A stretch of DNA of 64,000 nt from Antedon mediterranea (lineage: Eukaryota; Animalia; Echinodermata). Both the position numbers and the translations under genes were made by a program. Position 1 is the first letter of the stretch; every line of letters begins with the position of its first letter. The notes beneath the pieces are model-generated. The model had not been told where the DNA came from. It worked only from the letters and a program-made list of their open reading frames with translations, and made no database searches. The stretch lies in the NCBI RefSeq assembly GCF_964355755.1, contig NC_092676.1, positions 1,927,788-1,991,787 of the forward strand, given 5' to 3'. Positions 37,623-60,544 of this stretch are shown here, in pieces.

Positions 37623-39191
37623 TTAATCTGATTCCAGAACAAAATACTCAGTTTCAGTAGTATTGATGTTAGCATCTTCTCTGTTCTCATTTCTTGCATT
37701 TTGTAACCCCTTGTTTTCAATCACAGTGTCTGAGCTAACATAGTCAGTCTGTTCTGCTGTCTCTCTCTTCTCATTCCTTGCATTTTGTAACCCCTTGTTT
37801 TCAATCACAGTGTCGGAGTTAACATAGTCAGTCTGTTCTGCTGTCTCTCTGTTCTCATTCCTTGCATTTTGTAACCTCTTGTTTTCAATCACAGTGTCTG
37901 AGTTAACATAGTCAGTCTGTTCTGCTGTCTCTCTGTTCTCATTCCTTGCATTTTGTAACCTCTTGTTTTCAATCACAGTCTCTGAGTTGACATAGTCAGT
38001 CTGTTCTGTTATATTATCATCAATTGTATAGTAAACCTCTTCTGTAATTATTTGTGGAACATCAAAAGTGTTGCACACGCGATTTTCTGTGTTTCTGTGA
38101 AAGTACACAGGTACAGTTACATGTGTGTTGTGATGTTGTCTCTTTTGTTGTTCATAACAACACACAACAGAAACCAATAAAACTATTAGTATAATGTTAC
38201 TTGTTACCAGTATTATGGTAATTGTATTGGGCTTCTGAGTTGTCTTTGTAGCTGTTGGCATATCATAACTGGAGGTTATGTTTTGATAGTTGCCTTGAAG
38301 TGTTGTCATTCTCTCTGTTGTCATGGCATCTTCAATTGTGAAAAATTTCTTATCAGATCTGTTCTGAACATCAGTATTCACCAGACACTTAACAGTGTAG
38401 TTACCAGCTGGTAAATTACCAAAGCATATTTCATTCTTCTTATTTAAATTATAATGAGTCTTGAAGTCCTTTCCTATTAGCCCCCAATTATAAATTGTTT
38501 TATCACCAGATCCACCTTCTGCATAGCACTTGAAACAATTCTGGTTCACATCAACTTCAGATATGTCACATAACCTCATAATCCTTACCTTTAATTTAGG
38601 GTGAACTGGCAATATCAATGTGTAGCACCTGGTGAAATCATTATTTGAAATACAGTAGAAAAATATTCCTTCTCCAGAATAAAAACCTTTAAAAGTCAGA
38701 TTAATTGTTGTAATGTTGGTATTTGTACTATGAGACTGTGTAATGTGGTGCATTCCTTGGATCCAACCAATTGTGATGTCATTGTCATATTGGATGTTGT
38801 ATTCCCTAATCATGTAACATGAAATGTTTACTTCTTCTCCTTCAATGATGTTTTTGATATCATCACAGAAAGCTCTTGCAATGTTTGGTTGACTTCTGCT
38901 CATAGTTACACTTGATGAAGGAACCAAATATTGTAATCTTTCATCATCTTGACATGTGTGTATTCCTGTTTTTTGTTCATCAAAAGAAATGAAAAGCTGG
39001 TATTTCACTATGACGTCTTTGTAGCCAGGTAAATTGACCTCATCCTGATCATTTGATTGTACAATTTTTACATTTAGCTTAATATATGTTGAGTATTGAA
39101 ACTCCCTTTCAAATTGTACAAAATGTTTTGAAGTCCCATTTCTGAATATCAAAAAGCATGTCATCAAAAAGATAATGAATTTCAAAGTCAT
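37623..39191 (-). CDS. Receptor paralogue A: type I membrane protein with Ig-like domains and 4 cytoplasmic Tyr repeats (522 aa)
   Basis: Single ORF: signal peptide; Ig-like domain (EGEEVNISC..IGWIQG..GEGIFFYC); second Ig-like domain (FKCYAEGGSG..YNW..AGNYTVKC); Thr-rich stalk; TM ending VVCC; EEVYYTI; 4 x 28-aa DYV(N/S)S repeat; C-terminal TEYFVL. Confidence 0.88.
   Translation of the reverse strand: MTLKFIIFLMTCFLIFRNGTSKHFVQFEREFQYSTYIKLNVKIVQSNDQDEVNLPGYKDVIVKYQLFISFDEQKTGIHTCQDDERLQYLVPSSSVTMSRSQPNIARAFCDDIKNIIEGEEVNISCYMIREYNIQYDNDITIGWIQGMHHITQSHSTNTNITTINLTFKGFYSGEGIFFYCISNNDFTRCYTLILPVHPKLKVRIMRLCDISEVDVNQNCFKCYAEGGSGDKTIYNWGLIGKDFKTHYNLNKKNEICFGNLPAGNYTVKCLVNTDVQNRSDKKFFTIEDAMTTERMTTLQGNYQNITSSYDMPTATKTTQKPNTITIILVTSNIILIVLLVSVVCCYEQQKRQHHNTHVTVPVYFHRNTENRVCNTFDVPQIITEEVYYTIDDNITEQTDYVNSETVIENKRLQNARNENRETAEQTDYVNSDTVIENKRLQNARNENRETAEQTDYVNSDTVIENKGLQNARNEKRETAEQTDYVSSDTVIENKGLQNARNENREDANINTTETEYFVLESD
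37680..38010 (-). repeat. 84-bp coding tandem repeat x4 (paralogue A tail)
   Basis: Unit encodes TAEQTDYVNSDTVIENKRLQNARNENRE. Confidence 0.95.
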
Positions 39192-40794
39192 CTTTAATCC
39201 TTTCTCTATTGATGCAGAGTTAAAATATGGTATGCATACTATAGGTATTGCAACACATACTTTAACAATAATATTTTTATTTCCTGTGTTTCAGATTTTT
39301 ATGCTAAAATCAAAACTAATTTCTTATTAAATTATAAGTTTGTAATATCACAACAAGGAAGAATATATTTATTTTTAGTTACAGTTTTTGATGTTGAAAT
39401 CAAAACTAATTTTGTGAAATATAAAGAATGATGGCTCTAGATAAAGAAAATAAAATACATAGTATATACTGTATTTGTATAGTATTATAAATTTGTATAA
39501 ATTACAAAGTGTTCTAATTAACACGATAAACACTATTTATTTACCTCTGATTTCAATACTCAACTATATTTATCCAGTGGAATGTTATCTGTTTTTATAA
39601 AATTGCCACACCACAAACAAGTTACGAGGAAGAAAAACTTACTTAAAGTTCAGATGATCCAGAATGTGAAACCATAATAAATAATAATTTCAAAATTATT
39701 GGTATTTAGATTATGAAACTGCGTATTGGGTGGGTTTTCCTTGAATCCAAATAATTGTGGTAATTTCTTCCCGATTATGTAATTGTAACACGATATCCCA
39801 GCGCAAAGAGCTCAATCTGAATCTATGAGAAAAGTGAAGAGACCAAAAGGATGACCCAAAACAACATGGATAAAAATTATAGAAAATGATACGAAATAGA
39901 AATAAATATTAGTCTCTATGCACACTTCAGCCAATAATCGTCAATCATCTTGTCTGTGCTTGTGGTACAGTTGTCTGTGCAATGCTTGTGTATCAGGACA
40001 CACAGAAGAAATTCATAATTGACAATCCTTGGAAACTGCTGTGGACGTGACCAAGCACCAAGTTCAATTATTTTTTAATATTTATTCGGTACAAAAAAAA
40101 TGAATCTTATATTACCACAAATGAGTTAACAGCGTAATTTTAAAAATCAATACAAAAGTTACATCAGATAGTATTAGTATTACATAAACTGTATAGTATA
40201 AAGGACAATTTAAAAAATGTTATATTCCATAATAGAAAAACAACACATTTAAAGACAATTGTGGTGTTGTGAGCCTCAAAGTACAAAAGTTCCCAAAGGA
40301 TATACTACTCCGCCATTAAACAAATACAAACAACAACTAGACTATCAGGACATTTCTTTTTTTAGTTATTCTTTAATTAGTATGCTAAATACAGTAGAAG
40401 TTAATATCAATTTCAGAATTTATCTATTTTTAGATATAAAAAGCAATTACAAATAAAATCATTCTTCATGTAATTTATGCAATTCATTGAGGGAAAAATG
40501 AAGAAATGGGATGTTTTAAAGTTATAAGTTTAAGAATAAGAAAGTGAATAACTTTAATATTACTTTGATATGGCCAATTTAAATTTAGAATATTTTGACC
40601 TTCATTTTTGTGTTTCAAGGGACAATACATCTTTAAAAATTGACTAAGCAGACAAAGCAAAAATAACACGTTTTTATTATATAAACACAATAGGCATAGA
40701 ACATTAATTTTAAACCGCCCGGTGATATACTGAAATTTAAGTAATTAATTTGAAACGATAAAAGATGAGGAAATCTGTGAGAATGAGAAAAAGT

Positions 40795-40866
40795 CGCCTC
40801 TACCAAGATTCGAACACGGACCTTCTGCTTGAAATGCAGATGTCCTAACCATTAGACCACTGGGAC
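40795..40866 (-). pseudogene. tRNA-Glu(TTC)-like sequence inside an insertion of about 260 bp
   Basis: TGGTCTAATGGTTAGGA, perfect TCTGC-ATTTCAA-GCAGA anticodon arm and GTTCGAATC, but the acceptor stem is unpaired. The insertion is absent from the paralogous flank near 37270. Confidence 0.55.
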
Positions 40867-41414
40867 TTTCATGGTATAGTTCAAACCCGATTGGATAGCG
40901 ACTCTTTAACATCCTTGGCGTGGTACGGCACTAGTCCCTTTATTGTACGCACACGCACATGTAGAAACTTTTTGCAGTTTCACTACATAGTATTTACATT
41001 ACAGTGTTACACATTTTGATTTTGATTTAAAAATTAAACTAAAAAAACTTTGGAAATACACAGAGCACTTTACAATTATGCAGAAGATTAAAATTTAGTT
41101 AAAGCTTTACTTGATTTTCTACATCGGAAGTTGATTCCATAAACCCTTACACAGTCACTGCAATAAGTGAAAAGCAAATTTAAAAAAAAGCTCAATCACA
41201 TATTCACATGTGTACATAACAATAATATCTATGAAGCCAGTATGCCAGCTTAATGTTTGTATTTTTACATTACTGAGGTTAATTCTGCCTGTTCAACAAA
41301 ATGAACAGGGAGATTGTGAGCAGTTAAAAGAATGTCAAACCCATGTTTAGAATGTTTGCATCTGATTCCAGAACAAAATAATCTGGTGTTTCAGTAGTAT
41401 TGATGTTATTGTTC

Positions 41415-42380
41415 TTCTCTGTTCTCATTTCTTGCATTTTGTAACCTCTTGTTTTCAAACACAGTTTCAGAGTTTGCATAGCAAGTTTTTCTGCTGTCTC
41501 TCTGTTCTCATTTCTTGCATTTTGTAACCTCTTGTTTTCAAACACAGTTTCAGAGTTGGCATAGCAAGTTTTTTCTGCTGTCTCTCTGTTCTCATTCCTT
41601 GCATTTTGTAACCTCTTGTTTTCAAACACAGTTTCAGAGTTGGCATAGCAAGTTTTTTCTGCTGTCTCTCTCTTCTCATTTCTTGCATTTTGTAACCTCT
41701 TGTTTTCAAACACAGTTTCAGAGTTGGCATAGCAAGTTTTTTCTGCTGTCTCTCTGTTCTCATTCCTTGCATTTTGTAACCTCTTGTTTTCAAACACAGT
41801 TTCAGAGTTGGCATAGCAAGTTTTTTCTGCTGTCTCTCTCTTCTCATTTCTTGCATTTTGTAACCTCTTGTTTTCAAACACAGTTTCAGAGTTGGCATAG
41901 CAAGTTTTTTCTGCTGTCTCTCTCTTCTCATTCCTTGCATTTTGTAACCTCTTGTTTTCAAACACAGTTTCAGAGTTGGCATAGCAAGTTTTTTCTGCTG
42001 TCTCTCTGTTCTCATCCCTTGCATTTTTAACCTCTTGTTTTCAAACACAGTTTCAGAGTTGGCATAGCAAGTTTTTCTGCTGTCTCTCTGTTCTCATTCC
42101 TTGCATTTTGTAACCTCTTGTTTTCAAACACAGTTTCAGAGTTGGCATAGCAAGTTTTTTCTGCTGTCTCTCTCTTCTCATTCCTTGCATTTTGTAACCT
42201 CTTGTTTTCAAACACAGTTTCAGAGTTGGCATAGCAAGTTTTTTCTGCTGTCTCTCTCTTCTCATTCCTTGCATTTTGTAACCTCTTGTTTTCAAACACA
42301 GTTTCAGAGTTGGCATAGTTCTCATTCCTTGCATTTTGTAACCTCTTGTTTTCAATCACAGTGTCAGAGTTAACATAGTC
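41415..42380 (-). repeat. 84-bp tandem repeat, about 12 units (paralogue B tail)
   Basis: Unit variant TAEKTCYANSETVFENKRLQNARNEKRE; period checked at 41544/41628. Confidence 0.95.
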
Positions 42381-43672
42381 CAGTGGCGGATCTAGCGGGG
42401 GCGTATTTTTAAGGGTTTTTTTTTTTTTGAAAAAAATTAAATAGATTTTAAAAACACGTATCGTTTCGACGGTCATCTATCACCGATGGTTTGCACATTT
42501 TTATAGTGAAAATAGTACGTCGGAGCACATCGTCAGCTTGATCGCATTCCACCAAGCATGTATGTCGACATCCTTTGTGTACTATCAATCTCTAGCGTTA
42601 CCAACGATCATTAACAGTTATGTGTAAAAGGAGCAAGTTGATAAAAGCCACGTGGTGAGCTTGGTCGCGTTCCACTAAGCAGGTCGGCATCCTTTGTGAT
42701 CGTCACTCCCGTATTGTAGAGTAGTGGTACCTCCGACGATCAATCACAGTCAATGAATAGAGTTGATGAAGCCACATGGTCAGTGCTACTATACTACGCG
42801 CCCATTTATTAAGTACAATAAAAACAAAGGCTAGGACTGATAGTGCCTATGAAAATTATCCCGTTAGGCCTATATTTTATTAAAACGTATATTACTATTA
42901 AAATATTAACAATGCTGTAGCATTTCATGACCCTTGTTGTTTTATTTGCTTTTCCGTCGATGATTCTCATAAACAAATCGCGATGACAAAAGATGTGTTT
43001 TGTTTTTTTCAAATCACTAAATATAATGTAATCATGATCGAGCCGGACCGCTAATTTTAAAACGATCGTTTAAACCAGGCCGTTGAATATGCCGTGATTT
43101 TAATTGTAAAAAACATGATCGTCAGTCGATGGCTCGGAGTTTCGATAAATCTCGCGTCGCATGTGTTACGTGGTGGTGGAAAACATTCTCAGCAAGTTTG
43201 CTTCATTAATATGCATGAGACTCTGTGACGACCCGCTTCAACGTGACGTCATTTTACTAGCTGCATGCGAAGAAGTAGTCACCGCGATCGACCCGGCGCG
43301 CGTGTAAGAAAATAATACCGGCCTCTAGGCTAGGACAAGTTTATGCTTATATAAAAGCTGAAAAACATCGTCGCGTTGTAAAAATTTAGATGTAAAGTAC
43401 AGGCAAGTTGTTAGCTTGCTTTGGTACCCTAGGTAAGTATCAGCTTAGTTCCACATGTCGTAATTTGCGAGCTTTAGAGTGTTTGGTAATGACAAATATG
43501 AGATGTTTGTAAATCGTTTTAAACGACTTACAATGCGCTAGAACGCCAAAATTTCCAGGGGCCCTCGACCCCGACCGGGGGCCCTTGGCGGCCCCTGGCC
43601 CCCACCCAATGTTTGCTCGCTTCGCTCGCAAACCTACGCCACCCCTATTTTAATATCCTGGATCCGCCCCTG
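42381..43672. mobile_element. 1292-bp non-autonomous hAT-like element with 5-bp TSD, inserted in paralogue B
   Basis: TIR CAGTGGCGGATCTAG...CTGGATCCGCCCCTG; TSD TAGTC at 42376-42380 and 43673-43677; related decayed ends near 2640-2652 and 6910-6926. Confidence 0.87.
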
Positions 43673-45881
43673 TAGTCAATCTGTTCTGGTGTCTCTCTGT
43701 TCTCATTTCTTGCATTTTGTAACCTCTTGTTTTCAATCACAGTGTCTGAGTAGGCATAGTCAGTCTGTTCTGTTATATTATTATCAATTGTGTAGTAAAC
43801 CTCTTCTGAAATTGTTTGTGGAACATCAGAAGTGTTGCACACGCTATTTTCGATGTTTCTTTGATAGTGCACAGGTACAGGTACAGGTGTGTTGTGATGT
43901 TTCCTCTTTTGTCGTTCATAACAACACACAACAAACACAAGTAAAACTATTAAGTATTAGTATGATGTTACTTGTTACCAGTGTTACAGTTATTTTATTG
44001 GGCTTCTGAGTTATATTTGTTACTGTTGGCATGTCATCAGTGGATGTTATGTCTGTTGGCATGTCATCTCTGATTATTAATTCTATCTCATCAGATCTGC
44101 TCTGAACATCAGTACTCACCAGACATTTAACAGTGTAGTTACCAGCTGGTAAATTACCAAAGCATTTTTCATTCATCATATTGTAATTATATTGAGACAT
44201 GCTCCCCTCTCCCCTCAAACTCCAATGATAAATTCTCTTGTTACCAGATCCACCTTCTGCATAGCACTTGAAGCAATTCTGGTTCACATCAACTTCAGGT
44301 GTTTCATACAACCTCTTAACTTCTACCTTTAATTGAGGGTGAACTAGCAATATCAATGTGTAGCACCAAGTTTTTACAGGATTTATACCAAATGAAAGGC
44401 AGTAGAAAAATATTCCTTCTCCAGAGTGAAAACCTTTCAAAGTCAGATTTATTGTAATGTCAGTATCTGCACTATGAAACTGTGTAATGTTGTGTTTTGC
44501 TTGGATCCAACCAATTGTGATGTCATATAGAAAATTGTATTTCCTGATCATATCACATGATATGTTTACTTCTTCACCTTCAATGACATTTTTTATATCG
44601 TCACAATAAGCTTTTACAAGGTCTGGTTGATTCATGCTCCGTGTAACAGCCAATGAAGGAACCAAATATTGTAATCTATTAGTATTATCATCTTGACATG
44701 TGTATATTCCTGTTTGTTTTTGACCAAACAAAATTAAAATTTGGCATTTGATTTTGTTGCCAAACAAATTAACCAGGTAATTTGATGGTATAATTGTCAC
44801 CGGTACCTTATAGTATGTTGAATATTCAAACTTCAAATTTTACCAAACGTGTTGTAGCTCCTCCATGTCTGAATGTTAACAAGCAGGTCACCACCAATAA
44901 AATAATGATTTTCAAAGTCATCTTGCAGTTGTTAAAATGCAACCTCCAAAGTCTGTGGCTAGACTGAAGTATTGTTTGTATTTCGTGTGGTATGTATAGG
45001 TATTAAAATCCGGAAGAATATTTTTTTTTCCTGTTTTTCAGTATTTTTCTGCTGAAATTAAAACTAATTTATTATTATTATTTTTTTACAGGAAATATAA
45101 GTTTGTAATATCACAACAAGGAAGAATATATATATATTTAGTTACAGTTTTTGATTTTAAATTCAAAACTAATTTTGTGAAAATATAAAGAATGATGGCT
45201 CTAAAAAATAAAATACACTGGTAATAGTATACTGTATTTGTATAGTATTATAACCTGCAAATAGTTCATTAACATGATAAACACTATTTCAATACTCAAC
45301 TATATTTATTTATCCAGTGGATTGTTATCTGGCCACAACACAACAAAGGTTAGAGGAAGAAAAAACTGACTTAAAGAAAACCATAATAAATAATAATTTC
45401 AAATTATTGGTATTATTTAGATGATGAAACTGCGTATTGAGCTGGTTTTCCTTGAATCAAAATAATTGTGGTAATTTCTTCCTGATTATGTAATTGTAAC
45501 ATGATATTCCAGCGCAAAGAGCTCTATCTGAATTTGAGTAAAGTCAAAAGACCTAGAGGATAACCCAAAACCACATGGATAAAAATTATAGAAAATGATA
45601 GGAAAAAGAAATAAATAAGTCTATGCACACTTTGGCCAATAATCGCTCTGATTGGAGAAATCGGTATTGTCGCGAGACGTTCAGCGTTTGAGATGATGAT
45701 GAACATAAATACTACTTCTCCTTCAATGATTACCATTATTTTAAATCGTAGGCTTCTTATTGACACTCATGTTGTCAATTTTGCTAGCCTGGCATCATAA
45801 ACCGGTTCATTTATGTTGACCTGTTCTTTAGAATGCTCACTTCCAGATGAGTACGTGTTTCCTTTATAGTATAAATATGTA

Positions 45882-47411
45882 TTACAGTGCTGTCTCTCTG
45901 TTCTCATTTCTTGCATTTTGTAACCTCTTGTTGTCAGAGCTAACATAATATCCATTTTCAGCTTCTTCTGCTATATTATCATCAATTATAGTATAGTAAA
46001 CTTCTTCCTCTGTAATGGTTTGTGGTTTGTAAAAAATGTCATGCACACCACTTGTGTCAATGGTTCTTTGATAGCAGTGCACTACAGGTTCAGGTGTCTT
46101 TGTCTGCTGTTTCCTCTTCTGTCGTTCATAACAACACACAACAAACACAAGTAAAACTATAACTATCAGTATGATGTTACTTGTTACCAGTATTATGGTT
46201 ATTTTATTGGGCTTCTGAGTTATCTTTGTAGCTGTTTGGATGTCATCATTGGATGTTATATCTTGGTGGTGGTTGACTTTGTCTGTTGTCATGTCACCAT
46301 TGGATGTTATGTCTTGGTGGTGGTTGCCTTTGTCAGTTGGCATGTCATCATTGGGTGTTATGTCTTGGTGGTGTTTGCCTTGGAGTGTTGTCATTCTGTC
46401 TGTTGGCATGTCATCATTGGATGTCATGTCTTGGTGGTGTTTGCCTTGGAGTGTTGTCATTCTGTCTGTTGGCATGTCATCATTGGATGTCATGTCTTTG
46501 TGGCGTTTCCCCTGGAGTGTTGTCATTCTGTCTCTTGTCATGGCATCGTCAATTGTGAATTCTATTTCATCAGATCTGTTCTGAACAACATCAGTACTCA
46601 CCAGACACTTAACAGTGTAGTTACTAGCTGGTAGATTACCAAAGCATCTTTCATCAGTTTCATTGTAATATAGATTCTTGAATTCCTCTCCTTTCAAACT
46701 CCAATTATAAATTCTTTTGTCACCAGATCCACCTTCTGCATAGCACTTGAAGCAATTCTGGTTCACATCAATATCAGGTGTTTCATATAACCTTTTGACA
46801 TCTACTAATAATTGAGGGTGAACTAGCAATATCAATGTGTAGCACCTTATGCTCCTATTGGCTGAGTAATAATATGAAATACAGTGGATAAATATTCCCT
46901 CTCCAGAATAAAAACCTTTAAAAGTCAGATTTATTTCAATATCAGTATCTGCACTATGAAACTGTGTAATGTTGTGTTTTCCTTGGATCCAACCAATTGT
47001 TACTTCATATTGGTTGATGTTATATTTCCTGATATCACATGAAATGTTTACTTCTTCTCCTTCAATGATGTCTTTTATATCTTCACAATCAGCTCTTACA
47101 AAGTCTGGTTGAGCTCTTCTCCATTGTACATTATCCGATGAAGGAAGCAAATATTGTAAATTATCATCATCGTAACATGTGTATATTCCTTTTTGTGGTT
47201 GACCAAAGGAAATAAAAAGTGGGCATTTAATTGTGACGTCTCTTCCGTACAAATTATCCAAGTCCTGTAAACTTGATGGTGTAATTATCACAGGTAGCTC
47301 AGTGTATGATAGATAATAAAACTCTCTTTGAAATTGTACAAGATGTTTTGAAGCTCCATGTCTGAATATCAATAAACAAGTCACCAAAAGATTAAGCAAT
47401 TTTAAACTCAT
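45882..47411 (-). CDS. Receptor paralogue C (509 aa) with repeat-expanded extracellular stalk and one tail repeat
   Basis: Intact ORF with the same domain order. Stalk repeats MPTDRMTTLQGKHHQDMTSNDD; tail EEEVYYTI and NGYYVSS. Confidence 0.88.
   Translation of the reverse strand: MSLKLLNLLVTCLLIFRHGASKHLVQFQREFYYLSYTELPVIITPSSLQDLDNLYGRDVTIKCPLFISFGQPQKGIYTCYDDDNLQYLLPSSDNVQWRRAQPDFVRADCEDIKDIIEGEEVNISCDIRKYNINQYEVTIGWIQGKHNITQFHSADTDIEINLTFKGFYSGEGIFIHCISYYYSANRSIRCYTLILLVHPQLLVDVKRLYETPDIDVNQNCFKCYAEGGSGDKRIYNWSLKGEEFKNLYYNETDERCFGNLPASNYTVKCLVSTDVVQNRSDEIEFTIDDAMTRDRMTTLQGKRHKDMTSNDDMPTDRMTTLQGKHHQDMTSNDDMPTDRMTTLQGKHHQDITPNDDMPTDKGNHHQDITSNGDMTTDKVNHHQDITSNDDIQTATKITQKPNKITIILVTSNIILIVIVLLVFVVCCYERQKRKQQTKTPEPVVHCYQRTIDTSGVHDIFYKPQTITEEEVYYTIIDDNIAEEAENGYYVSSDNKRLQNARNENRETAL
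46235..46545 (-). repeat. Coding repeat in the stalk of paralogue C (66-bp x3 plus 48-bp x2)
   Basis: MPTDRMTTLQGKHHQDMTSNDD and shorter MTTDKVNHHQDITSNDD-type units. Confidence 0.85.
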
Positions 47412-48964: not shown

Positions 48965-50245
48965 TTATTTATGACATCCTCTATCATCATTTCTTGCATT
49001 TTGTAATCTCTTCTTTTCAATCACAGTGTCAGAGCAAACATACAACTGTTCAGCTCGTTCTGCTGTCTGTCTGTTCTCATTTCTTGCATTTTGTAACTTC
49101 TTGTTTTCAATCACAGTGTCCGAGTTAACATACAACTGTTCAGCTTGTTCTGCTGTTCTGTCATCAACTGAACAGGGAACCTCATCTTCTGCATTTATTT
49201 GCAGAACATCAGATGTGTTTCTCGCACTAATTGTGTCAGCGCTTCTTTGAAAGTGCACAACTGGTGCTGGTGTGTTGGGATGTTTTCTCTTTTGTTGTTC
49301 ATAAAAACACACAACACACACAAGTACAGCTATCCATATGATGTTACTTGTTACCATTAGTATTGTTATTTTAGGCTTCTTGGTATTAGTATCTTGAATT
49401 GTGAATGCTCTCTCATTAGATCTGTTCTGAACATCAGTACTCACCAGACACTTCACAGTGTAGTCACCAGCTGGTAAATTACTAAAGCATCTTTCATCTG
49501 TCTCTAGCTGGTCATCATTCTCTGTCAATTCTTCCTTATTCAAACTCCAATTATACATTTTCTTGTCATCAGATCCACCTTCTGCATAGCACTTAAAGCA
49601 ATGCTGGTTCACATCAATTTGAGGTGTTTCAGAGTATAACCTTTTAACATCCACCTTTAATTGAAGGTGAACTGTCAATATCAATGTGTAGCAGTAAATA
49701 TTTCTATTGTTTAAAATACAGTAGAAAAATATCCCTTCTCCAGAATGAAAACCTTTTAAAGTCTGATTAATTGTAACAGTGTTAGTATCTGTAAGATGAA
49801 ACTGTGTAATGTTGTGCTTTCCTTGGATCCAACCAATTGTCACTTCATAATGGATGTTACGATTTCTGTTCATGTTACATGAAATATTTAATTCCTCTCC
49901 TTTAATGATGTCTTTCATGTTGTCACAGTAAAGTTTTACACGTTTTGGTTGAAGTGCAAACCATGTTACCTGTACATTGGACGTCGGAACCAAATACTGT
50001 AATCTATCCTTTTGACATGTGTATATTCCTGTTTGGTGACCAAAAGAAATAAAAAGTGGACATTTAACTGCAACATTTTTTCCAACTATTTTCCATTTAC
50101 TTGATGTCATTTTCACAGTTATTTTGGAGTTTGATGAGTAATTAAAACTTCTTTCAAATTTTACCAACTCTTTTGAAGCTCCATGTCTGAATATCAACAA
50201 CCAGGTCATAAGTACAATGATGATATTAAGGAATTTCAAAGCCAT
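48965..50245 (-). CDS. Receptor paralogue D (about 426 aa), two tail repeats
   Basis: ATG at 50245 (MALKF..) aligns with the other paralogues. Intact ORF, short stalk, tail LYVNSD and LYVCSD; the EVYY motif is lost (EDEVPCSV). Confidence 0.87.
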   Translation of the reverse strand: MALKFLNIIIVLMTWLLIFRHGASKELVKFERSFNYSSNSKITVKMTSSKWKIVGKNVAVKCPLFISFGHQTGIYTCQKDRLQYLVPTSNVQVTWFALQPKRVKLYCDNMKDIIKGEELNISCNMNRNRNIHYEVTIGWIQGKHNITQFHLTDTNTVTINQTLKGFHSGEGIFFYCILNNRNIYCYTLILTVHLQLKVDVKRLYSETPQIDVNQHCFKCYAEGGSDDKKMYNWSLNKEELTENDDQLETDERCFSNLPAGDYTVKCLVSTDVQNRSNERAFTIQDTNTKKPKITILMVTSNIIWIAVLVCVVCFYEQQKRKHPNTPAPVVHFQRSADTISARNTSDVLQINAEDEVPCSVDDRTAEQAEQLYVNSDTVIENKKLQNARNENRQTAERAEQLYVCSDTVIEKKRLQNARNDDRGCHK

Positions 50246-50995
50246 CTTTAAAACCACTCTGTCTTACTACACTTTATAAATAACCAACTCCAAGTCCAAA
50301 TGTGGTAAGAGACTGAATGTGTTTGTAATAGTTTACTATACCAACAAGGAAGAATATACTTCAAGGGTTTGTTAAAGGTTTTTAACAGGAAGTCTTTAAA
50401 GGAAAGTTTATGCCAAGAAGATAGAATATGATTTTTGCTGCTAATATTCAAACTATAAATTTTGTGCAATGAAAAATTAACAAAAACAACTTGCTGATAG
50501 TACTGTACCTATAAAATTTGTGCATTTTGTGAAATGAAAAATTTACAGCTTTACAACAGCTTTACCTAATAATACTAGATGTGTCATCCCACAAACACAA
50601 AATAATCCGTCTTTTAGCAACCACCTACTTTAATTTGATTATCAATATGCCTACTGAGTGTTTGTGTTTTAATAATAGTACATTCGGTAATTTAAGGAAG
50701 TACGTTATTGGATATTATAAGCTCTCCCATTACAATATTTAAAACTAAATTATTTAGATTGAATGCTATACGGATATTTTAATGGGTTTTTTTTTCATTA
50801 TGTGAACTTGTTGGTTTCCTTCTTGTTATATGATCTTGATTTAATCATGTTGTTTGTAGATTTTACCAATTTAGAAAAAAAGCATTACAAGTTTTCTGAT
50901 ATTCTGGTGCTAAATTATATTTATTTTTACTTTTGAAGCAAACAGTAACATTGCTGTTTTTTACATCACAGCATTTTGTTGAATCACATTGTCAA

Positions 50996-51672
50996 CTAGA
51001 AAGCCACTCCGAGAGTGCATACCTCCGCCTACTGTAAAATTCTCGTACATAAGATTTCTCCGGTTAAAAAAAATATATATATATTTGTGTGTGTCTTAAT
51101 GCTGTTTGTGATTTAGGCTAATTTCACTACAAGCATGTGTATGCGAGTTTGGTGTAGTGGTTATGTAACAAGCCTTTCAATTAACAATAGCTTCAGTTGA
51201 CTAACAATAGAACAGCAACGCGAAAATCAAACGAGTGAATTTGAAAAGAAAATAGGTTTTTTAAACTACTGGCATCAATAAACGTGCACATTAAATCAAA
51301 TTATGTTTTAAAATTACAAATCACAAATTATAACTCTTGCCTCTTGTACAAAAATGAAGTTTTTTGGACAAGTAGTTCTCGAGAAAATGCAATTTCAGTA
51401 TACTACTTGTTACTTTAAGACTGCTCGCCGGCTTTCGAAAAATTCTGTCCTACCTTTTAACACTAGCAGGTCTGAAAAGTATACTAAAAAGTGGTCCAGA
51501 ATTTGGACAATGGTCCCAAAATTTAATCGAATGGTCCTTGACCACATATCTATCTGTATATTCATTTTGGTAAAGATCTTGTAATTACTTTTTGAGTAAT
51601 CCTGCTAACAAATAAACAAACAAACAAACAAACACACGCTACCGATTACATATACCTCCTTGGTGGAGGTAA
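50996..51672. mobile_element. Helentron/HINE (DINE-1-like) non-autonomous element
   Basis: Repeated ATACCTCC near both ends, (CAAA)n microsatellite, terminal hairpin ACCTCCTTGGTGGAGGT; absent from the paralogous site near 55655; inserted at AA/TT without a clear TSD. Confidence 0.72.
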
Positions 51673-52589
51673 ATTACTCAAATTTATTATTGTCAAGTGT
51701 ACATAATACATCAAAACCATTTTATAAGCAAACAAAAAATTTAATAATTGAATCACCTTTATTAGACAAATCTGTGTGATGAAGTTTTTTACAGGAAGTC
51801 TTTAAAGGAAAGTTTATGCCAAGAAGATACAGTAGAATATGATTTTTGCTGTTAATATTCAAACTGTAAAATTTGTGCATTTTGTGAAATGAAAAGTTAA
51901 ACAAAAACAGCTTACTGGTATTTACTGTACCTACAGTTAATACTAGAAATGTGTAATCCCACCACCACAAACACAAAATAACCCTGTCGTTTAGCAACCA
52001 CCTACTTTAATTTGATTGTCAAGATGGTTCATAAATGTTTGTGTTATATTATTTATAGTACATTAAGTAATTTAAGGAAGTACATTATAGAGATATAGGT
52101 TTTGCATTATAATATTAAAAACTAAATTGTTCAGATTGAATCCTGTACGGAAGTTTGAAAAATTTTTTTGTTTGCATTATGTGAACTTGTTGGTTTCCTT
52201 CTTGTTATATGATCTTGATTTAATCATGTTGTTTGTAGATTTAAACAATTGAAAAAAACAAAATACAAGTTTTCGATATTCTGTTGCTAAATTATATTTA
52301 TTTGTACAAGACAATTTGCAGGCTTTATACATTTGAAGCATAAAGTAACATTTGTGTTTTTTTACATCACAGCATGGACATATAACATCTATGTTAATTT
52401 GTCGTTCATTGCATAGTAAACCTCATCTTCCGCATTTGTCTGTAGAACATCAGATGAATTCTCACCCACACTTGCACCACTGTTTCTTTGATAGTACACA
52501 GCAGGTTCCACTCTGAATGAGAACGTGTTTTATTCTATTGTATCTATTTTTCCTGTGGAATGTTACCTATAATTTGGTAAAACATTGCC

Positions 52590-53670
52590 TTTTCTGCTGT
52601 CTCTCATTTCTTGCATTTTGTAACCTCTTGTTTTCAATCACAGTGTTTGAGCTAACATAGTCAGTCTGTTCTGGTGTTTCTCTGTCCTCATTTCTTGCAT
52701 TTTGTAATCTCTTCTTTTCAATCACAGTGTTTGAGCTAACATAGTCAGTCTTTTCTGCTGTCTCTCTGTTCTCATTTCTTGCATTTTGTAACCGCTTCTT
52801 TTCAATCACAGCATCAGAGCTAACATAGTCAGTCTGTTCTGCTGTCTCTCTGTTCTTGTTTATTGCATTTTGTAACCTCTTGTTTTGAATCACAGTGTTT
52901 GAGCTAACATAGTCAGTCTGTTCTGATGTCTCTCTGTTCTTTTTTATTGCATTTTGTAACCTCTTCTTTTCAATCACAGTGTTTGAGCTAACATAGTCAT
53001 TCTGTTCTGCTGTCTCTCTGTTCTCGTTTATTGCATTTTGTAACCTCTTGTTTTCAATCACAGTGTTTGGGCTAACATAGTCAGTCTGTTCTGCTGTCTC
53101 TCTGTTCTCATTTATTGCATTTTGTAATCTCTTCTTTTCAATCACAATGTCAGACCTAACATAGTCAGTCTGTTCTGATGTCTCTCTGTTCTCATTCCTT
53201 GCATTTTGTAACCTCTTGTTTTCAATCACAGTGTCAGAGCTAACATAGTCAGTCTGTTCTGGTGTCTCTCTGTTCTCATTTCTTGCATTTTGTAATCTCT
53301 TCTTTTCAATCACAGTGTCAGAGCTAACATAGTCAGTCTGTTCTGCTGTCTCTCTGTTCTCGTTTATTGCATTTTGTAACCGCTTCTTTTCAATCACAGC
53401 ATCAGAGCTAACATAGTCATTCTGTTCTGATGTCTCTCTGTTCTTTTTTATTGCATTTTGTAACCTCTTCTTTTCAATCACAGTGTTTGAGCTAACATAG
53501 TCAGTCTGTTCTGCTGTCTCTTTGTTCTCATTTCTTGCATTTTGTAATCTCTTCTTTTCAATCACAGTGTCAGAGCTAACATAGTCAGTCTGTTCTGCTG
53601 TCTCTCTGTTCTCGTTTATTGCATTTTGTAACTCTTGTTTTCAATCACAGTGTCAGAGTTAACATAGGAA
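52590..53670 (-). repeat. 84-bp tandem repeat, 13 units (downstream of paralogue E stop)
   Basis: DYVSS variant; 332-aa open frame at 52567-53565. Confidence 0.95.
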
Positions 53671-53678
53671 TGTTTGGT

Positions 53679-54797
53679 TTATTCTGCTGTATGATCGTCA
53701 ATTGAACAGTAAAGCTCATTTTTTTCAATGGTTTGCAAGACATTAGAAGTATCACCAACATTAATTGTGTCAATGTTACTTTGATAGTGCACAACAGGTA
53801 CAGGTGTGTTGTGATGTTTTCTCTTTTGTTGTTCATAATAACACACAAACACATTAAGTAAAACTATCAGTAGGCCTATTATAATACAGGTGCTTGTTAC
53901 AAATATTATGGTTATTTGATTAGTTTTCATGCTTTCTGTTGCATCTTCAATTGTGAATGCTATCTCATGAGATCTGTTCTGAACATCAGTACTCACCAGA
54001 CACATAACTGTGTAGTTACCAGCTGGTAAATTACCAAAGCATCTTTCATCTGTCTCTAGCTGGTCATCATTCCCTGTCAATTTTTCCTCATTCAAACTCC
54101 AATCATATATTTTCTTGTCACCAGATCCACCTTCTGCATAGCACTTAAAGCAATTCTGGTTCACATCAACTTCAGGTGTTTCAGAGTATAACCTTTTAAC
54201 ATCCACCTTTAATTGAAGGTGAACTGTCAATATCAATGTGTAGCAGTAAATATATCTATTGTTTAAAATACAATAGAAAAATATCCCTTCTCCAGAATGA
54301 AAACCTTTTAAAGTCTGATTAATTGTAACAGTGTTAGTATCTGTAAGATGAATCTGTGTAATGTTGTGCTTTCCTTGGATCCAACCAATTGTCACTTCAT
54401 AATGGATGTTAAGAAATCTGTTCATGTTACATGAAATATTTAATTCCTCTCCTTCAATGATGTCTTTCATGTTGTCACAATAAAGTTTTACACGTTTTGG
54501 TTGAAGTGCAAACCATATTACCTGTACATTGGACGTCGGAACCAAATACTGTAATCTATCCTTTTGACATGTGTATATTCCTGTTTGGTGACCAAAAGAA
54601 ATAAAAAGTGGACATTTAACTGCAACATTTTTTCCAACTATTTTCCATTTACTTGATGTCATTTTCACAGTTATTTTGGAGTTTGATGAGTAATTAAAAC
54701 TTCTTTCAAATTTTACCAACTCTTTTGAAGCTCCATGTCTGAATATCAACAACCAGGTCACAAGTACAATAATGATATTAAGGAATTTCAAATTCAT
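53679..54797 (-). CDS. Receptor paralogue E (about 372 aa), stops just before its Tyr-repeat array
   Basis: ATG 54797 (MNLKF..). Ectodomain nearly identical to D; TAA after ..YCSIDDHTAE; 13 repeat units follow beyond the stop and a frameshift. Confidence 0.8.
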   Translation of the reverse strand: MNLKFLNIIIVLVTWLLIFRHGASKELVKFERSFNYSSNSKITVKMTSSKWKIVGKNVAVKCPLFISFGHQTGIYTCQKDRLQYLVPTSNVQVIWFALQPKRVKLYCDNMKDIIEGEELNISCNMNRFLNIHYEVTIGWIQGKHNITQIHLTDTNTVTINQTLKGFHSGEGIFFYCILNNRYIYCYTLILTVHLQLKVDVKRLYSETPEVDVNQNCFKCYAEGGSGDKKIYDWSLNEEKLTGNDDQLETDERCFGNLPAGNYTVMCLVSTDVQNRSHEIAFTIEDATESMKTNQITIIFVTSTCIIIGLLIVLLNVFVCYYEQQKRKHHNTPVPVVHYQSNIDTINVGDTSNVLQTIEKNELYCSIDDHTAE

Positions 54798-56544
54798 CTT
54801 TAAAACTTCTCTGTCTTGATGCAGTTTATAAATAACCAACTCCAAGTCCAAATGTGGTAAGAGACTGAGTGTGTTTGTAATAGTTTACTATACCAACAAG
54901 GAAGAATATACTTCAAGGGTTTGTTAAAGGTTTTTAACAGGAAGTCTTTAAAGGGAAGTTTATGCCAAGAAGATAGAATATGATTTTTGCTGCTAATATT
55001 CAAACTATAAAATTTGTGCATTTTGTGAAATGAAAAATTTACAGCTTTACAACAGCTTTACTTAATAATACTAGATGTGTCATCCCACAAACACAAAATA
55101 ATCCGTCTTTTAGCAACCACCTACTTTAATTTGATTATCAATATGCCTACTGAGTGTTTGTGTTTTAATAATAGTACATTCGGTAATTTAAGGAAGTACG
55201 TTATTGGATATTATAAGCTCTGCCATTACAATATTTAAAACTAAATTGTTTAGATTGAACACAAAATAATCCGTCTTTTAGCAACCACCTACTTTAATTT
55301 GATTATCAATATGCCTACTGAATGTTTGTGTTTTATAGTACATTCGGTAATTTAAGGAAGTACGTTATTGGATATTATAAGCTCTCCCATTACAATATTT
55401 AAAACTAAATTGTTTAGATTGAATGCTATACGGATATTTTAACGTGTTTTTTTTTCATTATGTGAACTTGTTGGTTTCCTTCTTGTTATATGATCTTGAT
55501 TTAATCATGTTGTTTGTAGATTTTACCAATTTAGAAAAAAAGCAATACAAGTTTTCTGATATTGTGGTGCTAAATTATATTTATTTTTACATTTGAAGCA
55601 AACAGTAACATTGCTGTTTTTTACATTACAGCATTTTGTTGAATCACATTGTCAATTAGTCAAATTTATTATTGTCAAGTCTACATAATACTTCAAAACC
55701 ATTTTATAAGCAAACAAAAAATTTAATAATTGAATCAGCTTTATTAGACAAATCTGTGTGATGAAGTTTTTTACAGGAAGTCTTTAAAGGAAAGTTTATG
55801 CCAAGAAGATACAGTAGAATATGATTTTTGCTGTTAATATTCAAACTGTAAAATGTGTGCATTTTGTGAAATGAAAAGTTAAACAAAAACAGCTTACTGG
55901 TATTAACTGTACCTACAGTTAATACTAGAAATGCGTTATCCCATCACCACAAACACAAAATAACCCTGTCGTTTAGCAACCACCTACTTTAATTTGATTG
56001 TCAAGATGGTTCATAAATGTTTGTGTTATATTATTTATAGTACATTAAAGTAATTTAAGGAAGTACATTATAGAGATATTATTATAGGTTTCGCATTATA
56101 ATATTTAAAACTAAATTGTTTAGATTGAATCCTGTTCGGAAGTTTGAAAATATTTTTTTATTGCATTATGTGAAGTTATTGGTTTCCTTCTTGTTATATG
56201 ACCTTGATTTAATCATGTTGTTTGTAGATTGAAAAAAACAAAATACAAGTTTTCGATATTCTGTTGCTAAATTATATTTATTTGTACAAGACAATTTGCA
56301 GGCTTTATACATTTGAAGCATAAAGTAACATTTGTGTTTTTTACATCACAGCATGGACATATAACATCTATGTTAATTTGTCGTTAATTGCATAGTAAAC
56401 CTCATCTTCCGCATTTGTCTGTAGAACATCAGATGAATTCTCACCCACATTGGCATCCCTGTTTCTTTGATAGTACACAGCAGGTTCCACTCTGAATGAG
56501 AACATGTTTCATTCTATTGTATCTATTTTTCCTGTGGAATATTA

Positions 56545-58266
56545 CCTATAATTTGGTAAAACATTGCCTTTTCTGCTGTCTCTCATTTCTTGCATTTTGT
56601 AACCTCTTCTTTTCAATCACAGTGTCAGAGCTAACATAGTCAGTCTGTTCTGCTGTCTCTCATTTCTCGCATTTTGTAACCTCTTCTTTTCAATCACAGT
56701 GTCAGAGCTAACATAGTCAGTCTGTTCTGCTGTCTCTCATTTCTTGCATTTTGTAACCTCTTGTTTTCAATCACAGTGTCAGAGCTAACATAGTCAGTCT
56801 GTTCTGCTGTCTCTCTGTTCTCATTTCTTGCATTTTGTAACCTCTTCTTTTCAATCACAGCATCAGAGCTAACATAGTCAGTCTGTTCTGCTGTCTCTCT
56901 GTTCTCGTTTTTTGCATTTTATAACCTCTTGTTTTCAATCACAGTGTCAGAGCTAACATAGTCAGTCTGTTCTGCTGTCTCTCTGTTCTCATTTCTTGCA
57001 TTTTGTAACCTCTTGTTTTCCATCACAGTGTCTGAGCTAACATAGTCAGTCTGTTCTGCTGTCTCTCTGTTCTCATTTCTTGCATTTTGTAACCTCTTCT
57101 TTTCAATCACAGTGTCAGAGCTAACATAGTCAGTCTGTTCTGCTGTCTCTCTGTTGTCATTTCTTGCATTTTGTAACCTCTTCTTTTCAATCACAGTGTC
57201 AGAGCTAACATAGTCAGTCTGTTCTGGTGTCTCTCTGTTCTCATTTCTTGCATTTTGTAACCTCTTCTTTTCAATCACAGTGTCAGAGCTAACATAGTCA
57301 GTCTGTTCTGCTGTCTCTCTGTTCTCATTTCTTGCATTTTGTAACCTCTTCTTTTCAATCACAGTGTCAGAGCTAACATAGTCAGTCTGTTCTGCTGTCT
57401 CTCTGTTCTCATTTCTTGCATTTTGTAACCTCTTCTTTTCAATCACAGTGTCAGAGCTAACATAGTCAGTCTGTTCTGCTGTCTCTCTTTTCTCATTTCT
57501 TGCATTTTGTAACCTCTTCTTTTCAATCACAGTGTCAGAGCTAACATAGTCAGTCTGTTCTGCTGTCTCTCTGTTCTCATTTCTTGCATTTTGTAACCTC
57601 TTCTTTTCAATCACAGCATCAGAGCTAACATAGTCAGTCTGTTCTGCTGTCTCTCTGTTCTCGTTTTTTTTCATTTTGTAACCTCTTGTTTTCAATCACA
57701 GTGTCAGAACTAACATAGTCAGTCTGTTCTGCTGTCTCTCTGTTCTCATTTCTTGCATTTTGTAACCTCTTGTTTTCAATCACAGTGTCAGAGCTAACAT
57801 AGTCAGTCTGTTCTTTCTGCTTTCTGTTGCATCTTCAATTGTGAATGCTATCTCATCAGATCAGTACTCACCAGACACATAACTGTGTAGTTACCAGCTG
57901 GTAAATTACCAAAGCATCTTTCATCTGTCTCTAGCTGGTCATCATTCTCTGTCAATTTTTCCTCATTCAAACTCCAATTATATATTTTCTTGTCACCAGA
58001 TCCACCTTCTGCATAGCACTTAAAGCAATTCTGGTTCACATCAACTTCAGGTGTTTCAGAGTATAACCTTTTAACATCCACCTTTAATTGAAGGTGAACT
58101 GTCTATATCATGTTTACTTGATGATTTAATTATCACTGGTTGCTTTAGTGAATGATTGGTAATAAAACCTCCTTTCAAATTGTACTAACTCTCTTGAAGC
58201 TCCATGTCTAAATATCAACAACCAGGTCACAAGTACAAAGATGATATTAAGAAATTTCAAAGCCAT
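56545..58266 (-). pseudogene. Receptor paralogue F, internally deleted; 15 Tyr repeats
   Basis: Signal peptide from ATG 58266; early frameshift; Ig1 deleted (junction near 58110); Ig2 retained (58081-57848); TM and juxtamembrane deleted near 57815, joining directly to the repeat array. Confidence 0.85.
56570..57815 (-). repeat. 84-bp tandem repeat, 15 units (paralogue F)
   Basis: Highly homogeneous DYVSSDTV variant; the last units are shortened. Confidence 0.95.
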
Positions 58267-59350
58267 CTTTAAACCTCTCTCTGCTGATACAAGTCCAGAT
58301 GTGGTCAGAGACTGATTGTGTTTGTAATAGCTTACAATACTAATAAGGAAGATACTTGGGGGATTTTTTTGTAAACAGTTTTTTACAGGAAGTATTTAAA
58401 GGAAAGTTTATGCCAAGAAGATAGAATATGATTTTGACTACTTACAGTATATTGAAACTATAAAATATTTGCATTTTGTAAAATGAAAAATAGCTTACTG
58501 GTACTATATACTGTACCTATTAATACTACAAATGCGTCATCCCACCACCACAAACACAAAATAACCCCTGTCTTTTAGCAACCACCTACTTTAATTTTAT
58601 TATCAATATGCCTACTGAGTGTTTGTGTTATTATTAGTACATTAAGTAATTTAAGGAAGTACATTATTAGATATTATAAGGTCTCCCATTACAATATTTA
58701 AAACTACATTTTTCAGATTGAATGCTGTGCAGAAGTTTTAACATTTTTTTGGTGCATTATGTGAACTTGTTGGTTTCCTTCTTGTTATATGATCTTGATT
58801 TAATTATGTTGTTTTTTGTTTTTTCTCTCTTCTGTGAGGTTCACTCACCTTTATTTCAAAACATAAATAAACAATTGTATTATGTTTGTATATTATCTTT
58901 TTAAACATATACTATTTTCATCATGTTGTTTGTAGATTTAAACAATTGAAAAAAAACAAAATACAAGTTTTCAATATTATTCTGTTGCTAAATTTTATTT
59001 ATTTGTGCAAGACTATATTTGAAGCATAAGTAACATTTAAGTTTTTTTACATCACAGCGTGGACATATAACATTATGTATTTTCATCATGTTCTGCTGTG
59101 TCATTAATTGCATAGTAAACCTCCTCTTCCGCATTTGTCTGTAGAACATCACATGAATTCTCACCCACACTGACACCATTGTTTCTTTGATAGTACACAG
59201 CAGGTTCCCCTCTGAATGAGAACATATTTATTCTATCTATTTTTCCTGTGGAATGTTACAATCACAGTGTCAGAGCTAACATAGTCTCTCTGTTCTCATT
59301 TCTTTAATCCTCTTCTTTTCAATGACAGTGTCTAACATAGGTTAATTTAA

Positions 59351-60544
59351 TTATTCTGCTGTATGATCATCAATTGAACAGTAAATCTCATTCTTTTCAA
59401 TGGTTTGCGAAACATTCAAAGTGTCACCAACACTAATTGTGTCATTATTACTTTGAAAGTGCACAACAGGTACAGGTGTGTTGCGATAGTTTCTCTTCTG
59501 TTGTTCATAACAACACACAATAAACCCAAGTAAAACTATCAGTAGGCCTATGATAGTGCTTGTTACAAATACTATGGTTATTTGATTAGTGTTCTTGCAT
59601 TTTGTCGGCATGCCAAATTTGATATCTTGAAATGTTGTTATTCTTTCGTTTACATCTTTGATTGTGAATGCTAACTCATCAGATCTGTTCTGAACATCAG
59701 TACTCACCAGACACTTGACAGTGTAGTTACCAGCTGGTAAATTACTAAAGCATCTTTCATCAGGTTCATTGTAATTATATTGAGTCATGATCCCCTCTCC
59801 TCTTAGTCCCAAATTATAAATTGTTTTATTACCAGATCCACCTTCTGCATAGCACTTAAAGCAATTCCGGTTTACATCAACTTCAGGTGTTTCATATAAC
59901 CTTTGAACCTCTACCATTAATTGAGAGTGAACCATCAATATCAATGTGTAGCAGTAAATACTTCTATAGTTTAAAATACAGTAGAAAAATATCCCTTCTC
60001 CAGGTTGAAAACCTTTTAAAGTCTGATTAATTGTAACAGTGTTAGTATCTGTAAGATGAGACTGTGTGATGTGGTGCTTTCCTTGGATCCAAATTATTGT
60101 GACATTAGTTTTGAAGTAAGCTCTGAAGTAATGCCTGTATTCCCTAATCATGTCACATGACATGTTTACTTCCTCTCCTTCAATGATGTCTTTTATTTCA
60201 TCACAATAAAGTTTTACATGCTTTCGTTGACCCTTTCGTTGACCCTTTCTCTGTGTAACATTTGATGAAGGAACCAAATATTGTAAACTATCATCATCTT
60301 GACATGTGTATATTCCTGTTTGGTGACCAAAAGAAATGAAAAGTGAACATTTAACTGCAACATCTTTTCCACCCACATGAACTATGTTCTGTTTACTTGA
60401 CGATGTAATTCTCACAGTTATTTTGGAGTTTGATGAGTAATAAAATATTCTTTCAAATTTTACCCACTCTTTTGAAGCTCCATGTCTAAATATCAACAAG
60501 CAGGTCATCATTACAAAAATAATATTAAGGAATTTCAAAGCCAT
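59351..60544 (-). CDS. Receptor paralogue G (about 397 aa), short-tailed
   Basis: ATG 60544 (MALKF..). Intact ectodomain and TM; same ..YCSIDDHTAE-TAA end as E; only decayed repeat remnants downstream (59260-59345). Confidence 0.83.
   Translation of the reverse strand: MALKFLNIIFVMMTCLLIFRHGASKEWVKFERIFYYSSNSKITVRITSSSKQNIVHVGGKDVAVKCSLFISFGHQTGIYTCQDDDSLQYLVPSSNVTQRKGQRKGQRKHVKLYCDEIKDIIEGEEVNMSCDMIREYRHYFRAYFKTNVTIIWIQGKHHITQSHLTDTNTVTINQTLKGFQPGEGIFFYCILNYRSIYCYTLILMVHSQLMVEVQRLYETPEVDVNRNCFKCYAEGGSGNKTIYNLGLRGEGIMTQYNYNEPDERCFSNLPAGNYTVKCLVSTDVQNRSDELAFTIKDVNERITTFQDIKFGMPTKCKNTNQITIVFVTSTIIGLLIVLLGFIVCCYEQQKRNYRNTPVPVVHFQSNNDTISVGDTLNVSQTIEKNEIYCSIDDHTAE

Follow-up and report, generated by a model that had tools for sequence, protein, structure and literature searches.

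The stretch of DNA considered here, 64,000 nucleotides of the crinoid Antedon mediterranea (NCBI RefSeq assembly GCF_964355755.1, contig NC_092676.1, positions 1,927,788 to 1,991,787 of the forward strand) and referred to as the window, carries at 37.6-60.5 kb a cluster of seven paralogous genes, A to G, which very probably represent a functional family of immunoglobulin (Ig)-like receptors of some role. A first-pass annotation, made from the letters alone, had described seven co-oriented paralogues, two of them pseudogenes. Both tblastn and DNA alignment recover seven copies on the minus strand, and the lesions of pseudogenes B and F were confirmed. The other five copies are intact and consist of a single open reading frame of 522 (A), 509 (C), 426 (D), 372 (E) or 397 (G) amino acids; over 100 shuffles of the cluster region, the longest stop-free stretch was 180 codons. 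The intact copies have a common plan, which includes a hydrophobic N-terminus, a Cys-anchored ectodomain of about 260 amino acids in three segments, a variable stalk, one transmembrane (TM) segment that ends near a Cys, and a cytoplasmic tail. This architecture had been attributed to all seven copies, which is accurate for the intact ones but not for F, from which most of the ectodomain and the TM segment are gone. Likewise, the description of the genes as intronless stands for the coding frame only. DNA alignment indicates that the 5' flanks were duplicated together with the receptor genes.

All of the genes, arrays and relics described next lie on the minus strand. The tail encoded by gene A (37623..39191) contains a YxxI motif, a terminal TxYxxL and four 28-aa units, three of them with YxN; the DNA repeat array of the gene, four units by repeat count, is at 37678-38008. 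Pseudogene B (41324..44921) has frameshifts, an insertion in its array and 13 units with further frameshifts. A loss of 5 bp in B results in a stop after codon 31, a +1 frameshift occurs in the TM region, and a 1.3-kb insertion (42381..43672, no strand assigned) with terminal inverted repeats and a 5-bp target-site duplication sits between repeat units 1 and 2. Gene C (45882..47411) has one shortened repeat unit, and its Thr/Asp/His-rich stalk is enlarged by a 66-bp repeat (46331-46547). Gene D (48965..50245) possesses two 90-bp units with one YxN. Gene E (53679..54797) ends at the same aligned position as the stop of G, and behind its stop is an untranslated array of 13 84-bp units (52597..53667), the first of which has lost 1 bp. 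Pseudogene F (56573..58266) retains a signal peptide, followed by a frameshift, and an E-like domain 3 (95-99%). Its reading frame stops after 46 codons, and it has lost most of domains 1-2, 16 bp in domain 3 and the entire TM/juxtamembrane part; its array, 15 units by repeat count, spans 56576-57814. Gene G (59351..60544) encodes a tail of about 53 amino acids that ends after one YxxI core motif and contains no translated units.

Sequence similarity also reveals relic juxtamembrane/Tyr segments behind the E array (52389..52508), behind the F array (56368..56487) and behind the G stop (59073..59207, with 44 codons open). Each is a second, still-open juxtamembrane segment with an acidic Tyr motif, which suggests an ancestral tail with two juxtamembrane Tyr segments. 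No in-frame route from the genes to the relic segments was found. Two accounts of these segments were considered and set aside. As spliced exons, they would be joined out of frame by the strong donor in domain 3 (judged by eye). As the source of the D tail, they match D best at the protein level, yet all six copies have 72-77% DNA identity to the G relic, which gives no clear support.

A recount of the 84-bp units gives 4 in A, 13 in B, 2 in D (as a 90-bp variant), 13 in E and 15 in F; C has one shortened unit of this type, and G no more than a degenerate remnant. This is in agreement with the earlier count of 4, about 13, 1, 2, 13, 15 and about 0. Tyrosine-repeat tails of variable length had been proposed from these numbers. 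Variation in the intact proteins extends from 0 to 4 units (four in A, one shortened in C, two in D, none in E or G), but the long arrays of 13, 13 and 15 units are confined to B, the DNA behind the E stop, and F. Variant codons in the long arrays have synonymous to non-synonymous ratios of 5:17 in E and 3:8 in F (about 1:3; small counts), and so look as expected without constraint, i.e. neutral.

Tails of the intact proteins differ in their tyrosine motifs as well. An acidic-flanked YxxI motif is found in the tails of A, C, E and G, G has one additional YxN beside the membrane, and D has lost the juxtamembrane Tyr and is left with its one YxN. The tail tyrosines are presumed to be phosphorylated. 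In the adaptor LAT, YxN binds the Grb2 SH2 domain and valence governs aggregation. The Antedon receptors resemble LAT, LAB and LAX (PMC3291652) in having several YxN motifs, by which Grb2 valence would be set, and a Cys where the TM segment ends on the inner side, a candidate palmitoylation site. The systems are not homologous, however. The LAT ectodomain is described there as two residues long and its valence as set by phosphorylation, whereas the Antedon proteins have a full ectodomain and their maximum valence would follow minisatellite copy number. It is conceivable, if rather doubtful, that the genes are a paired-receptor-like cluster in which the repeat number of a coding 84-bp minisatellite sets how many Grb2-type docking sites a receptor has, and in which unequal crossing-over moves positively selected ectodomains among high-valence, low-valence and short tails. 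If true, this would amount to a heritable, probably polymorphic dial on recognition signalling that operates without exon shuffling.

Comparison of D and E provides the clearest record of exchange between copies. Identity between the two is 93-100% over the 5' flank and the greater part of the ectodomain and 76-77% over the TM/juxtamembrane part, where E instead follows G (87%). By region, D-E identity is 99%, 95% and 84% for domains 1-3 and 48% for the TM segment. Informative sites among D, E and G switch at about +750 to +860 (maximum chi2 111, 0 of 1000 permutations). The ectodomain match together with the TM/juxtamembrane switch places one ectodomain type on two different tails, and sequence comparison thus identifies D as a chimera that carries an E-like 5' flank and ectodomain on the TM segment and tail of another lineage. 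In a tree, the window copies form a G/D/E and an A/B/C group, with P0008, an Antedon protein considered below, on a long branch; only the D+E pairing is strongly supported. D sits where the two groups meet, as expected under unequal crossing-over, a process that would reshuffle ectodomains relative to tails and alter the number of 84-bp units. The birth-and-death evolution suggested by the first-pass annotation is borne out by the two dead copies of seven and the mosaic ones.

It is possible that the family is simply decaying, with a mostly silent cluster, arrays that are neutral minisatellites, and E and G truncated on their way to loss. Two of seven copies are dead, E and G stop early, the long arrays look neutral and annotation is almost absent, all of which would fit. 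Indels, in contrast, have kept the frame: among the five intact copies all 17 distinct gaps are multiples of 3 in an alignment made without codon information, for which (1/3)^17 is about 8e-9, versus 11 of 53 gaps in four pairs of flanks. The overall omega of 0.70 (model M0) differs from 1 at p=0.012 only, but six-gene fits place 32-40% of ectodomain sites at omega <0.15. The core Cys residues have been kept at a dS of about 0.35-0.47, and E and G have a common stop and are still open after divergence to 69% identity. Decay is therefore very unlikely as an account of the cluster.

Divergence is greatest in the N-domain, as the first-pass annotation had anticipated, with a mean amino acid identity of 57% compared with 70-71% for domains 2-3. 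The dN/dS ratio (non-synonymous to synonymous substitution rates) is 0.70 in the N-domain (bootstrap 0.43-0.99), 0.55 in domain 2, 0.51 in domain 3 and about 0.55 in the TM/juxtamembrane part, and ranges over regions from 0.30 to 0.70. Site models were fitted to 199 codons with the authors' own implementation of GY94. Model M2a improves on M1a with a 2dl (twice the log-likelihood difference) of 25.4 and places 13% of sites at omega 4.7; domain by domain, 2dl is 16.9, 8.6 and 4.4. The maximum 2dl in 20 null simulations with mosaic trees was 11.2. Two alternative topologies give 13-14; omission of D gives 17.4, omission of both D and G 11.5, and restriction to four intact copies 8.8. Flagged sites lie near D residues 94-98, 182-184 and 242, and since several adjoin indels, alignment error may contribute. 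The site models make positive selection on a class of ectodomain sites likely, with the strongest signal in the N-domain.

Selection of this kind is also a property of fertilisation proteins. Gamete recognition in broadcast-spawning echinoderms typically involves surface proteins that are species-restricted, under positive selection and variable in repeat length, bindin and its receptor being examples. Lineage restriction, positive selection and repeat variation in the Antedon cluster would fit gamete recognition equally well. Divergence among paralogues of a single haplotype, varied signalling tails and dead copies would nevertheless suit a repertoire better than a lock-and-key pair, and a role in fertilisation appears unlikely.

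The ectodomain likely adopts an Ig-like fold, with the set (V, I, C1 or C2) left unspecified, and two, and probably three, atypical Ig-like domains are predicted per receptor. Domains of the Ig superfamily are beta-sandwiches about 90-100 residues long, with a Cys in the B strand, a Trp in the C strand and a Cys in the F strand as the hallmark. In domains 2 and 3 the Cys-Trp-Cys spacing is of this type (C123/W139/C176 and C219/W233/C266 in D), and each of the two has one additional pair of Cys; the N-domain carries a GxYxC motif. The Cys residues are conserved in all six window copies compared and in P0008, so the domains are Cys-anchored as had been claimed; the Trp anchor is less constant, its domain-3 counterpart in G being Leu. 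With ESM Atlas features, D residues 24-330 score 0.93, a value to be read against shuffled proteins, which reach 0.9 in 4-10 of 100 cases, and the best 10 hits all belong to Ig families, in keeping with the Ig-like ectodomain first proposed. The N-domain of C scores 0.84 with 9 of 10 hits to Ig families, which is under the tool's threshold of 0.9 and is a lead only. AlphaFold, supplied with seven sequences, returned all-beta models of the ectodomain and of domains 2-3. In HHalign comparisons, domain 3 aligned with carp C2-like repeats (80% over 21 columns) and bacterial SdrD_B repeats (93% over 24 columns), while for domain 2 neither carp set matched above shuffles. Comparisons between the three domains did not exceed column shuffles, and the domains are thus not demonstrably internal duplicates. 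A non-Ig fold was not indicated, nor did the sequences match a conserved single-copy family.

Relatives of the receptors are few. A search with the D ectodomain (578 candidates) returned two proteins, both from Antedon, which were a truncated model of gene E and P0008 (XP_071950092.1), an uncharacterised A. mediterranea protein encoded on another chromosome-sized contig. The alignment of P0008 with A runs from signal peptide to TM segment inclusive (36% identity, 362 columns), and the core Cys and Trp residues are kept, which identifies P0008 as a true homologue of the cluster genes; it has a longer N-domain and a long basic tail that is unrelated to the cluster tails and lacks the 28-aa unit. 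When 1.84 billion representatives were searched with a profile, there were eight hits. Besides the same two proteins of Antedon, these were one protein of carp, four repeat proteins whose Ig-like domains are of bacterial type, and a 133-aa fragment, P0015; the five Ig-like repeat proteins among these are weak matches. P0015, from a 658-bp ENA contig, is a homologue of the N-domain with a longer loop as in P0008 and is the sole relative outside Antedon-named records. By these comparisons, the convincing homologues are only the two Antedon proteins and P0015. Proteins of Anneissia were present in the searched collection and none was returned, although unannotated genes would escape such a search. 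A phmmer search with the whole of A scored 7991 candidates and had no hit at E<=0.001, probably because of crowding by the repeat, and none of 117 metagenome and 75 viral contig pattern matches was confirmed.

These searches bear on the suggestion that the proteins are non-immune adhesion or guidance molecules of the PECAM, VCAM or SYG kind, for instance homophilic tags that mark identity in nerve, in epithelium or during arm regeneration. Their nearest ESM Atlas neighbours include clusters named for VCAM1, PECAM, iHog and hemicentin, and P0008, a single relative on another chromosome, combines the same ectodomain with an unrelated basic tail. Adhesion and guidance genes are usually conserved across phyla, however, and no homologue was found beyond Antedon and fragment P0015; omega of 0.5-0.7 and two dead copies of seven would also be unusual for such genes. 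An adhesion or guidance role is accordingly judged improbable.

Gene prediction for the cluster raises the question of splicing. RefSeq model XP_071957072.1 (P0007) corresponds to gene E residues 46-268, starts at Met46 and is identical at 222 of 223 positions. It splices from a GTGAGT site in domain 3 to an exon at 34355-34438. It could be argued that the genes are normally spliced from this donor to downstream exons, the main products being secreted or differently tailed as in P0007, and a donor-like GTGAGT is indeed present in six of the seven copies. Several points stand against this scheme. A lacks the site. The second exon of P0007 lies at a distance of 19.5 kb and overlaps, in antisense orientation, an exon-like segment of the plus-strand gene that starts at 32514. 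Past the donor the genes continue in frame with a dN/dS of about 0.55 and align with P0008 through the TM segment. The P0007 splice is probably spurious, and spliced products as the main output are most improbable, though alternative splicing from the donor-like site may occur. Annotation appears to miss four of the five intact copies and to mis-splice the fifth.

Four sequencing runs, available as contig sets, were compared with the window. Contigs over the C ectodomain differ from it by 3.6% (run X5) and 7.4% (X1), compared with 0.8-0.9% for mostly non-coding pieces, and other coding pieces differ little. The C ectodomain contigs were picked from 32 displayed pieces of more than 14,000, among which alleles and unseen paralogues are indistinguishable, and the variation is at most a hint of polymorphism. 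Allorecognition determinants of the Alr1/2 and fuhc type are marked by high allelic polymorphism from which fusion or rejection can be predicted, and by allele-specific binding. Summed contig depth in bins of the TM region is about 5-17x that of unique intergenic bins; depth is no copy number, and this is a weak hint of more copies than the seven in the window.

Taken at the level of sequence, then, the locus displays tandem duplication that includes the 5' flank, divergence that keeps the reading frame, two dead copies, a chimera between ectodomain and tail, and tail motifs that differ between copies. The interpretation somewhat favoured here is that the cluster consists of recognition-receptor genes under birth-and-death evolution, with a variable N-domain, reshuffled tails and a phosphotyrosine output. 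The intact genes would encode type I membrane proteins that recognise a variable non-self ligand. Receptors that bind ligand through the N-domain would be brought together in clusters. The acidic-flanked juxtamembrane Tyr and the YxN repeats would become targets of a Src/Syk-type kinase and, once phosphorylated, docking sites for SH2 adaptors, with YxN taken by the Grb2 type. A would be trivalent and D monovalent, while E and G would be short-tailed receptors with one core motif. In live genes selection apparently tolerates short arrays only, with expansion setting in once arrays are no longer translated.

A number of observations weigh against this interpretation. Scored by the consensus definitions given in the Alr paper (bioRxiv 10.1101/2022.03.04.482883), the immunoreceptor tyrosine-based activation motif (ITAM; YxxI/L x6-9 YxxI/L) is found in none of the five intact tails and the corresponding inhibition motif (ITIM) in one, that of C, where the match could be due to chance. 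Lys, Arg, Asp and Glu are absent from within the hydrophobic TM segments of the intact copies. The long tyrosine arrays, as read from the DNA, are present in no intact protein, and the units of E and F mostly have YVS rather than YxN. Confidence in the AlphaFold models is low (predicted local distance difference test values of 40.9 and 47.0), and Foldseek searches with them gave no match at E<=0.001, the top rows being titin, Fab, ICAM and Fn3. VIA-align placed the model of domain 2, and that domain only, on Ig-like sandwiches with a root-mean-square deviation of 2.4-3.7 over about 90 residues and Z of 7-9, which is near background for that tool. Pfam assigned six receptor sequences to no family at cut-off (best V-set_CD47, E 0.001), and a sequence search of the PDB had 0 hits at E<=10. 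The selection test rests on four to six paralogues and a home-made implementation, its 2dl shrinks from 25.4 to 15.0 and then 7.2 with wider trimming near gaps, and the domain 3 signal is not significant. With regard to expression, the exact sequences of the five intact proteins were not found in the protein collection, one truncated gene model alone was found for the cluster, and run X5, considered as a candidate RNA set, has contigs that cover intergenic DNA and repeats and is probably DNA. Finally, the present results tie the genes to immunity no more than to recognition of another kind. A role of the family in non-self or immune recognition is nevertheless held to be slightly the better bet.

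Comparison with known systems places the recognition-receptor interpretation in context. In Hydractinia and Botryllus, clusters of a similar kind function in recognition, which speaks for it. The Alr genes of Hydractinia, as portrayed in the paper cited above, form clusters that include pseudogenes. Their products are type I membrane proteins whose unusual Ig domains are without diagnostic motifs. Clustering, unusual Ig domains, pseudogenes, domain shuffling between paralogues and divergent tails with Tyr motifs are found in the Antedon cluster as well. Alr genes, on the other hand, are described there as having a separate exon for each Ig domain, spacer and TM segment, with an Fn3-like domain in most of them and ITAMs in several, whereas the Antedon genes are single reading frames without an ITAM and use a 28-aa tandem unit to build their tails. 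The absence of ITAMs and the solitary ITIM match have to be set beside the fact that not every Alr tail has such motifs. No Alr sequence is among the eight hits of the profile search. Crinoids, moreover, are solitary.

The FcoR genes of Botryllus are a multigene family of Ig receptors under birth-and-death evolution whose tails have a YxxI/L/V core motif or an ITIM, in contexts compared to LAT/SLP-76 sites (PMC12065747). They resemble the Antedon genes as Ig receptors of a deuterostome invertebrate, in size, in birth-and-death evolution and in tails with a Tyr core motif. FcoR is characterised there as having V-Ig, sushi and two C2 domains, as being spliced and paired with fester-family genes, and as residing at a mapped histocompatibility locus. 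The sushi domain, the splicing, the fester-family partners and the histocompatibility setting were not seen in the Antedon cluster, which is flanked by a prickle-like LIM gene and a CHORD gene, and no sushi domain was hit by Pfam at E<=1 in the receptor sequences.

In vertebrate paired Ig receptors (KIR, LILR, Siglec, CD300), the activating form has a charged TM residue and the inhibitory form has ITIMs. The Antedon cluster is similar to these in a near-identical ectodomain on different tails (D versus E), short-tail and long-tail forms, conversion and gene death. It differs in that its short-tail forms have no charged TM residue, no multi-ITIM form exists, each gene is a single reading frame, and D and E have no ITIM. 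The analogies drawn by the first-pass annotation to Alr and to paired receptors are thus partial. From the sequences and these analogies, the Antedon cluster would be a crinoid variant of the birth-and-death Ig-receptor cluster exemplified by Alr and FcoR, a member of neither family, with a likely immune role.

Preceding the cluster in the window is a conserved neighbour, the gene for a prickle-like LIM protein (1-23656, plus strand), whose LIM-domain exon at 963-1289 is 99% identical to the A. mediterranea prickle-like protein XP_071957069.1. It is followed by a CHORD-domain gene (about 26400-30410, minus strand; Pfam E 5e-17) and an apparently small gene (32514 to about 34490, plus strand) with exons judged by eye. 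Introns of the prickle-like gene contain two related AACGTT-rich satellites (14407-15086 and 18461-20633) with periods of 112 bp and 61 bp in 6 and 36 copies. A palindromic family of about 170 bp that resembles miniature inverted-repeat transposable elements has members at 3480-3645, 10060-10230, 10797-10970, 23139-23304, 25908-26080, 28219-28378 and 33711-33875. Within the cluster, a very high-copy element (50994-51690) is inserted in the E-D spacer and is covered in all four runs at hundreds of times the depth of unique sequence, and a 164-bp tandem duplication (55090-55423) lies inside the shared 5' flank block of gene E.

A comparable crinoid or echinoderm family was not found in a literature search that covered subscription papers, such as those on the sea urchin immune repertoire, thinly, and an earlier mention of such a family is accordingly possible. 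Fast-evolving Ig receptors with tyrosine-motif tails are known from a cnidarian (Alr) and a tunicate (FcoR). If the Antedon genes are expressed in coelomocytes or epithelia, they would be an independently built echinoderm example, contained in one reading frame and with a tail valence set by a minisatellite. The receptor genes are compact and easy to clone, which makes their ligand, polymorphism and signalling accessible.

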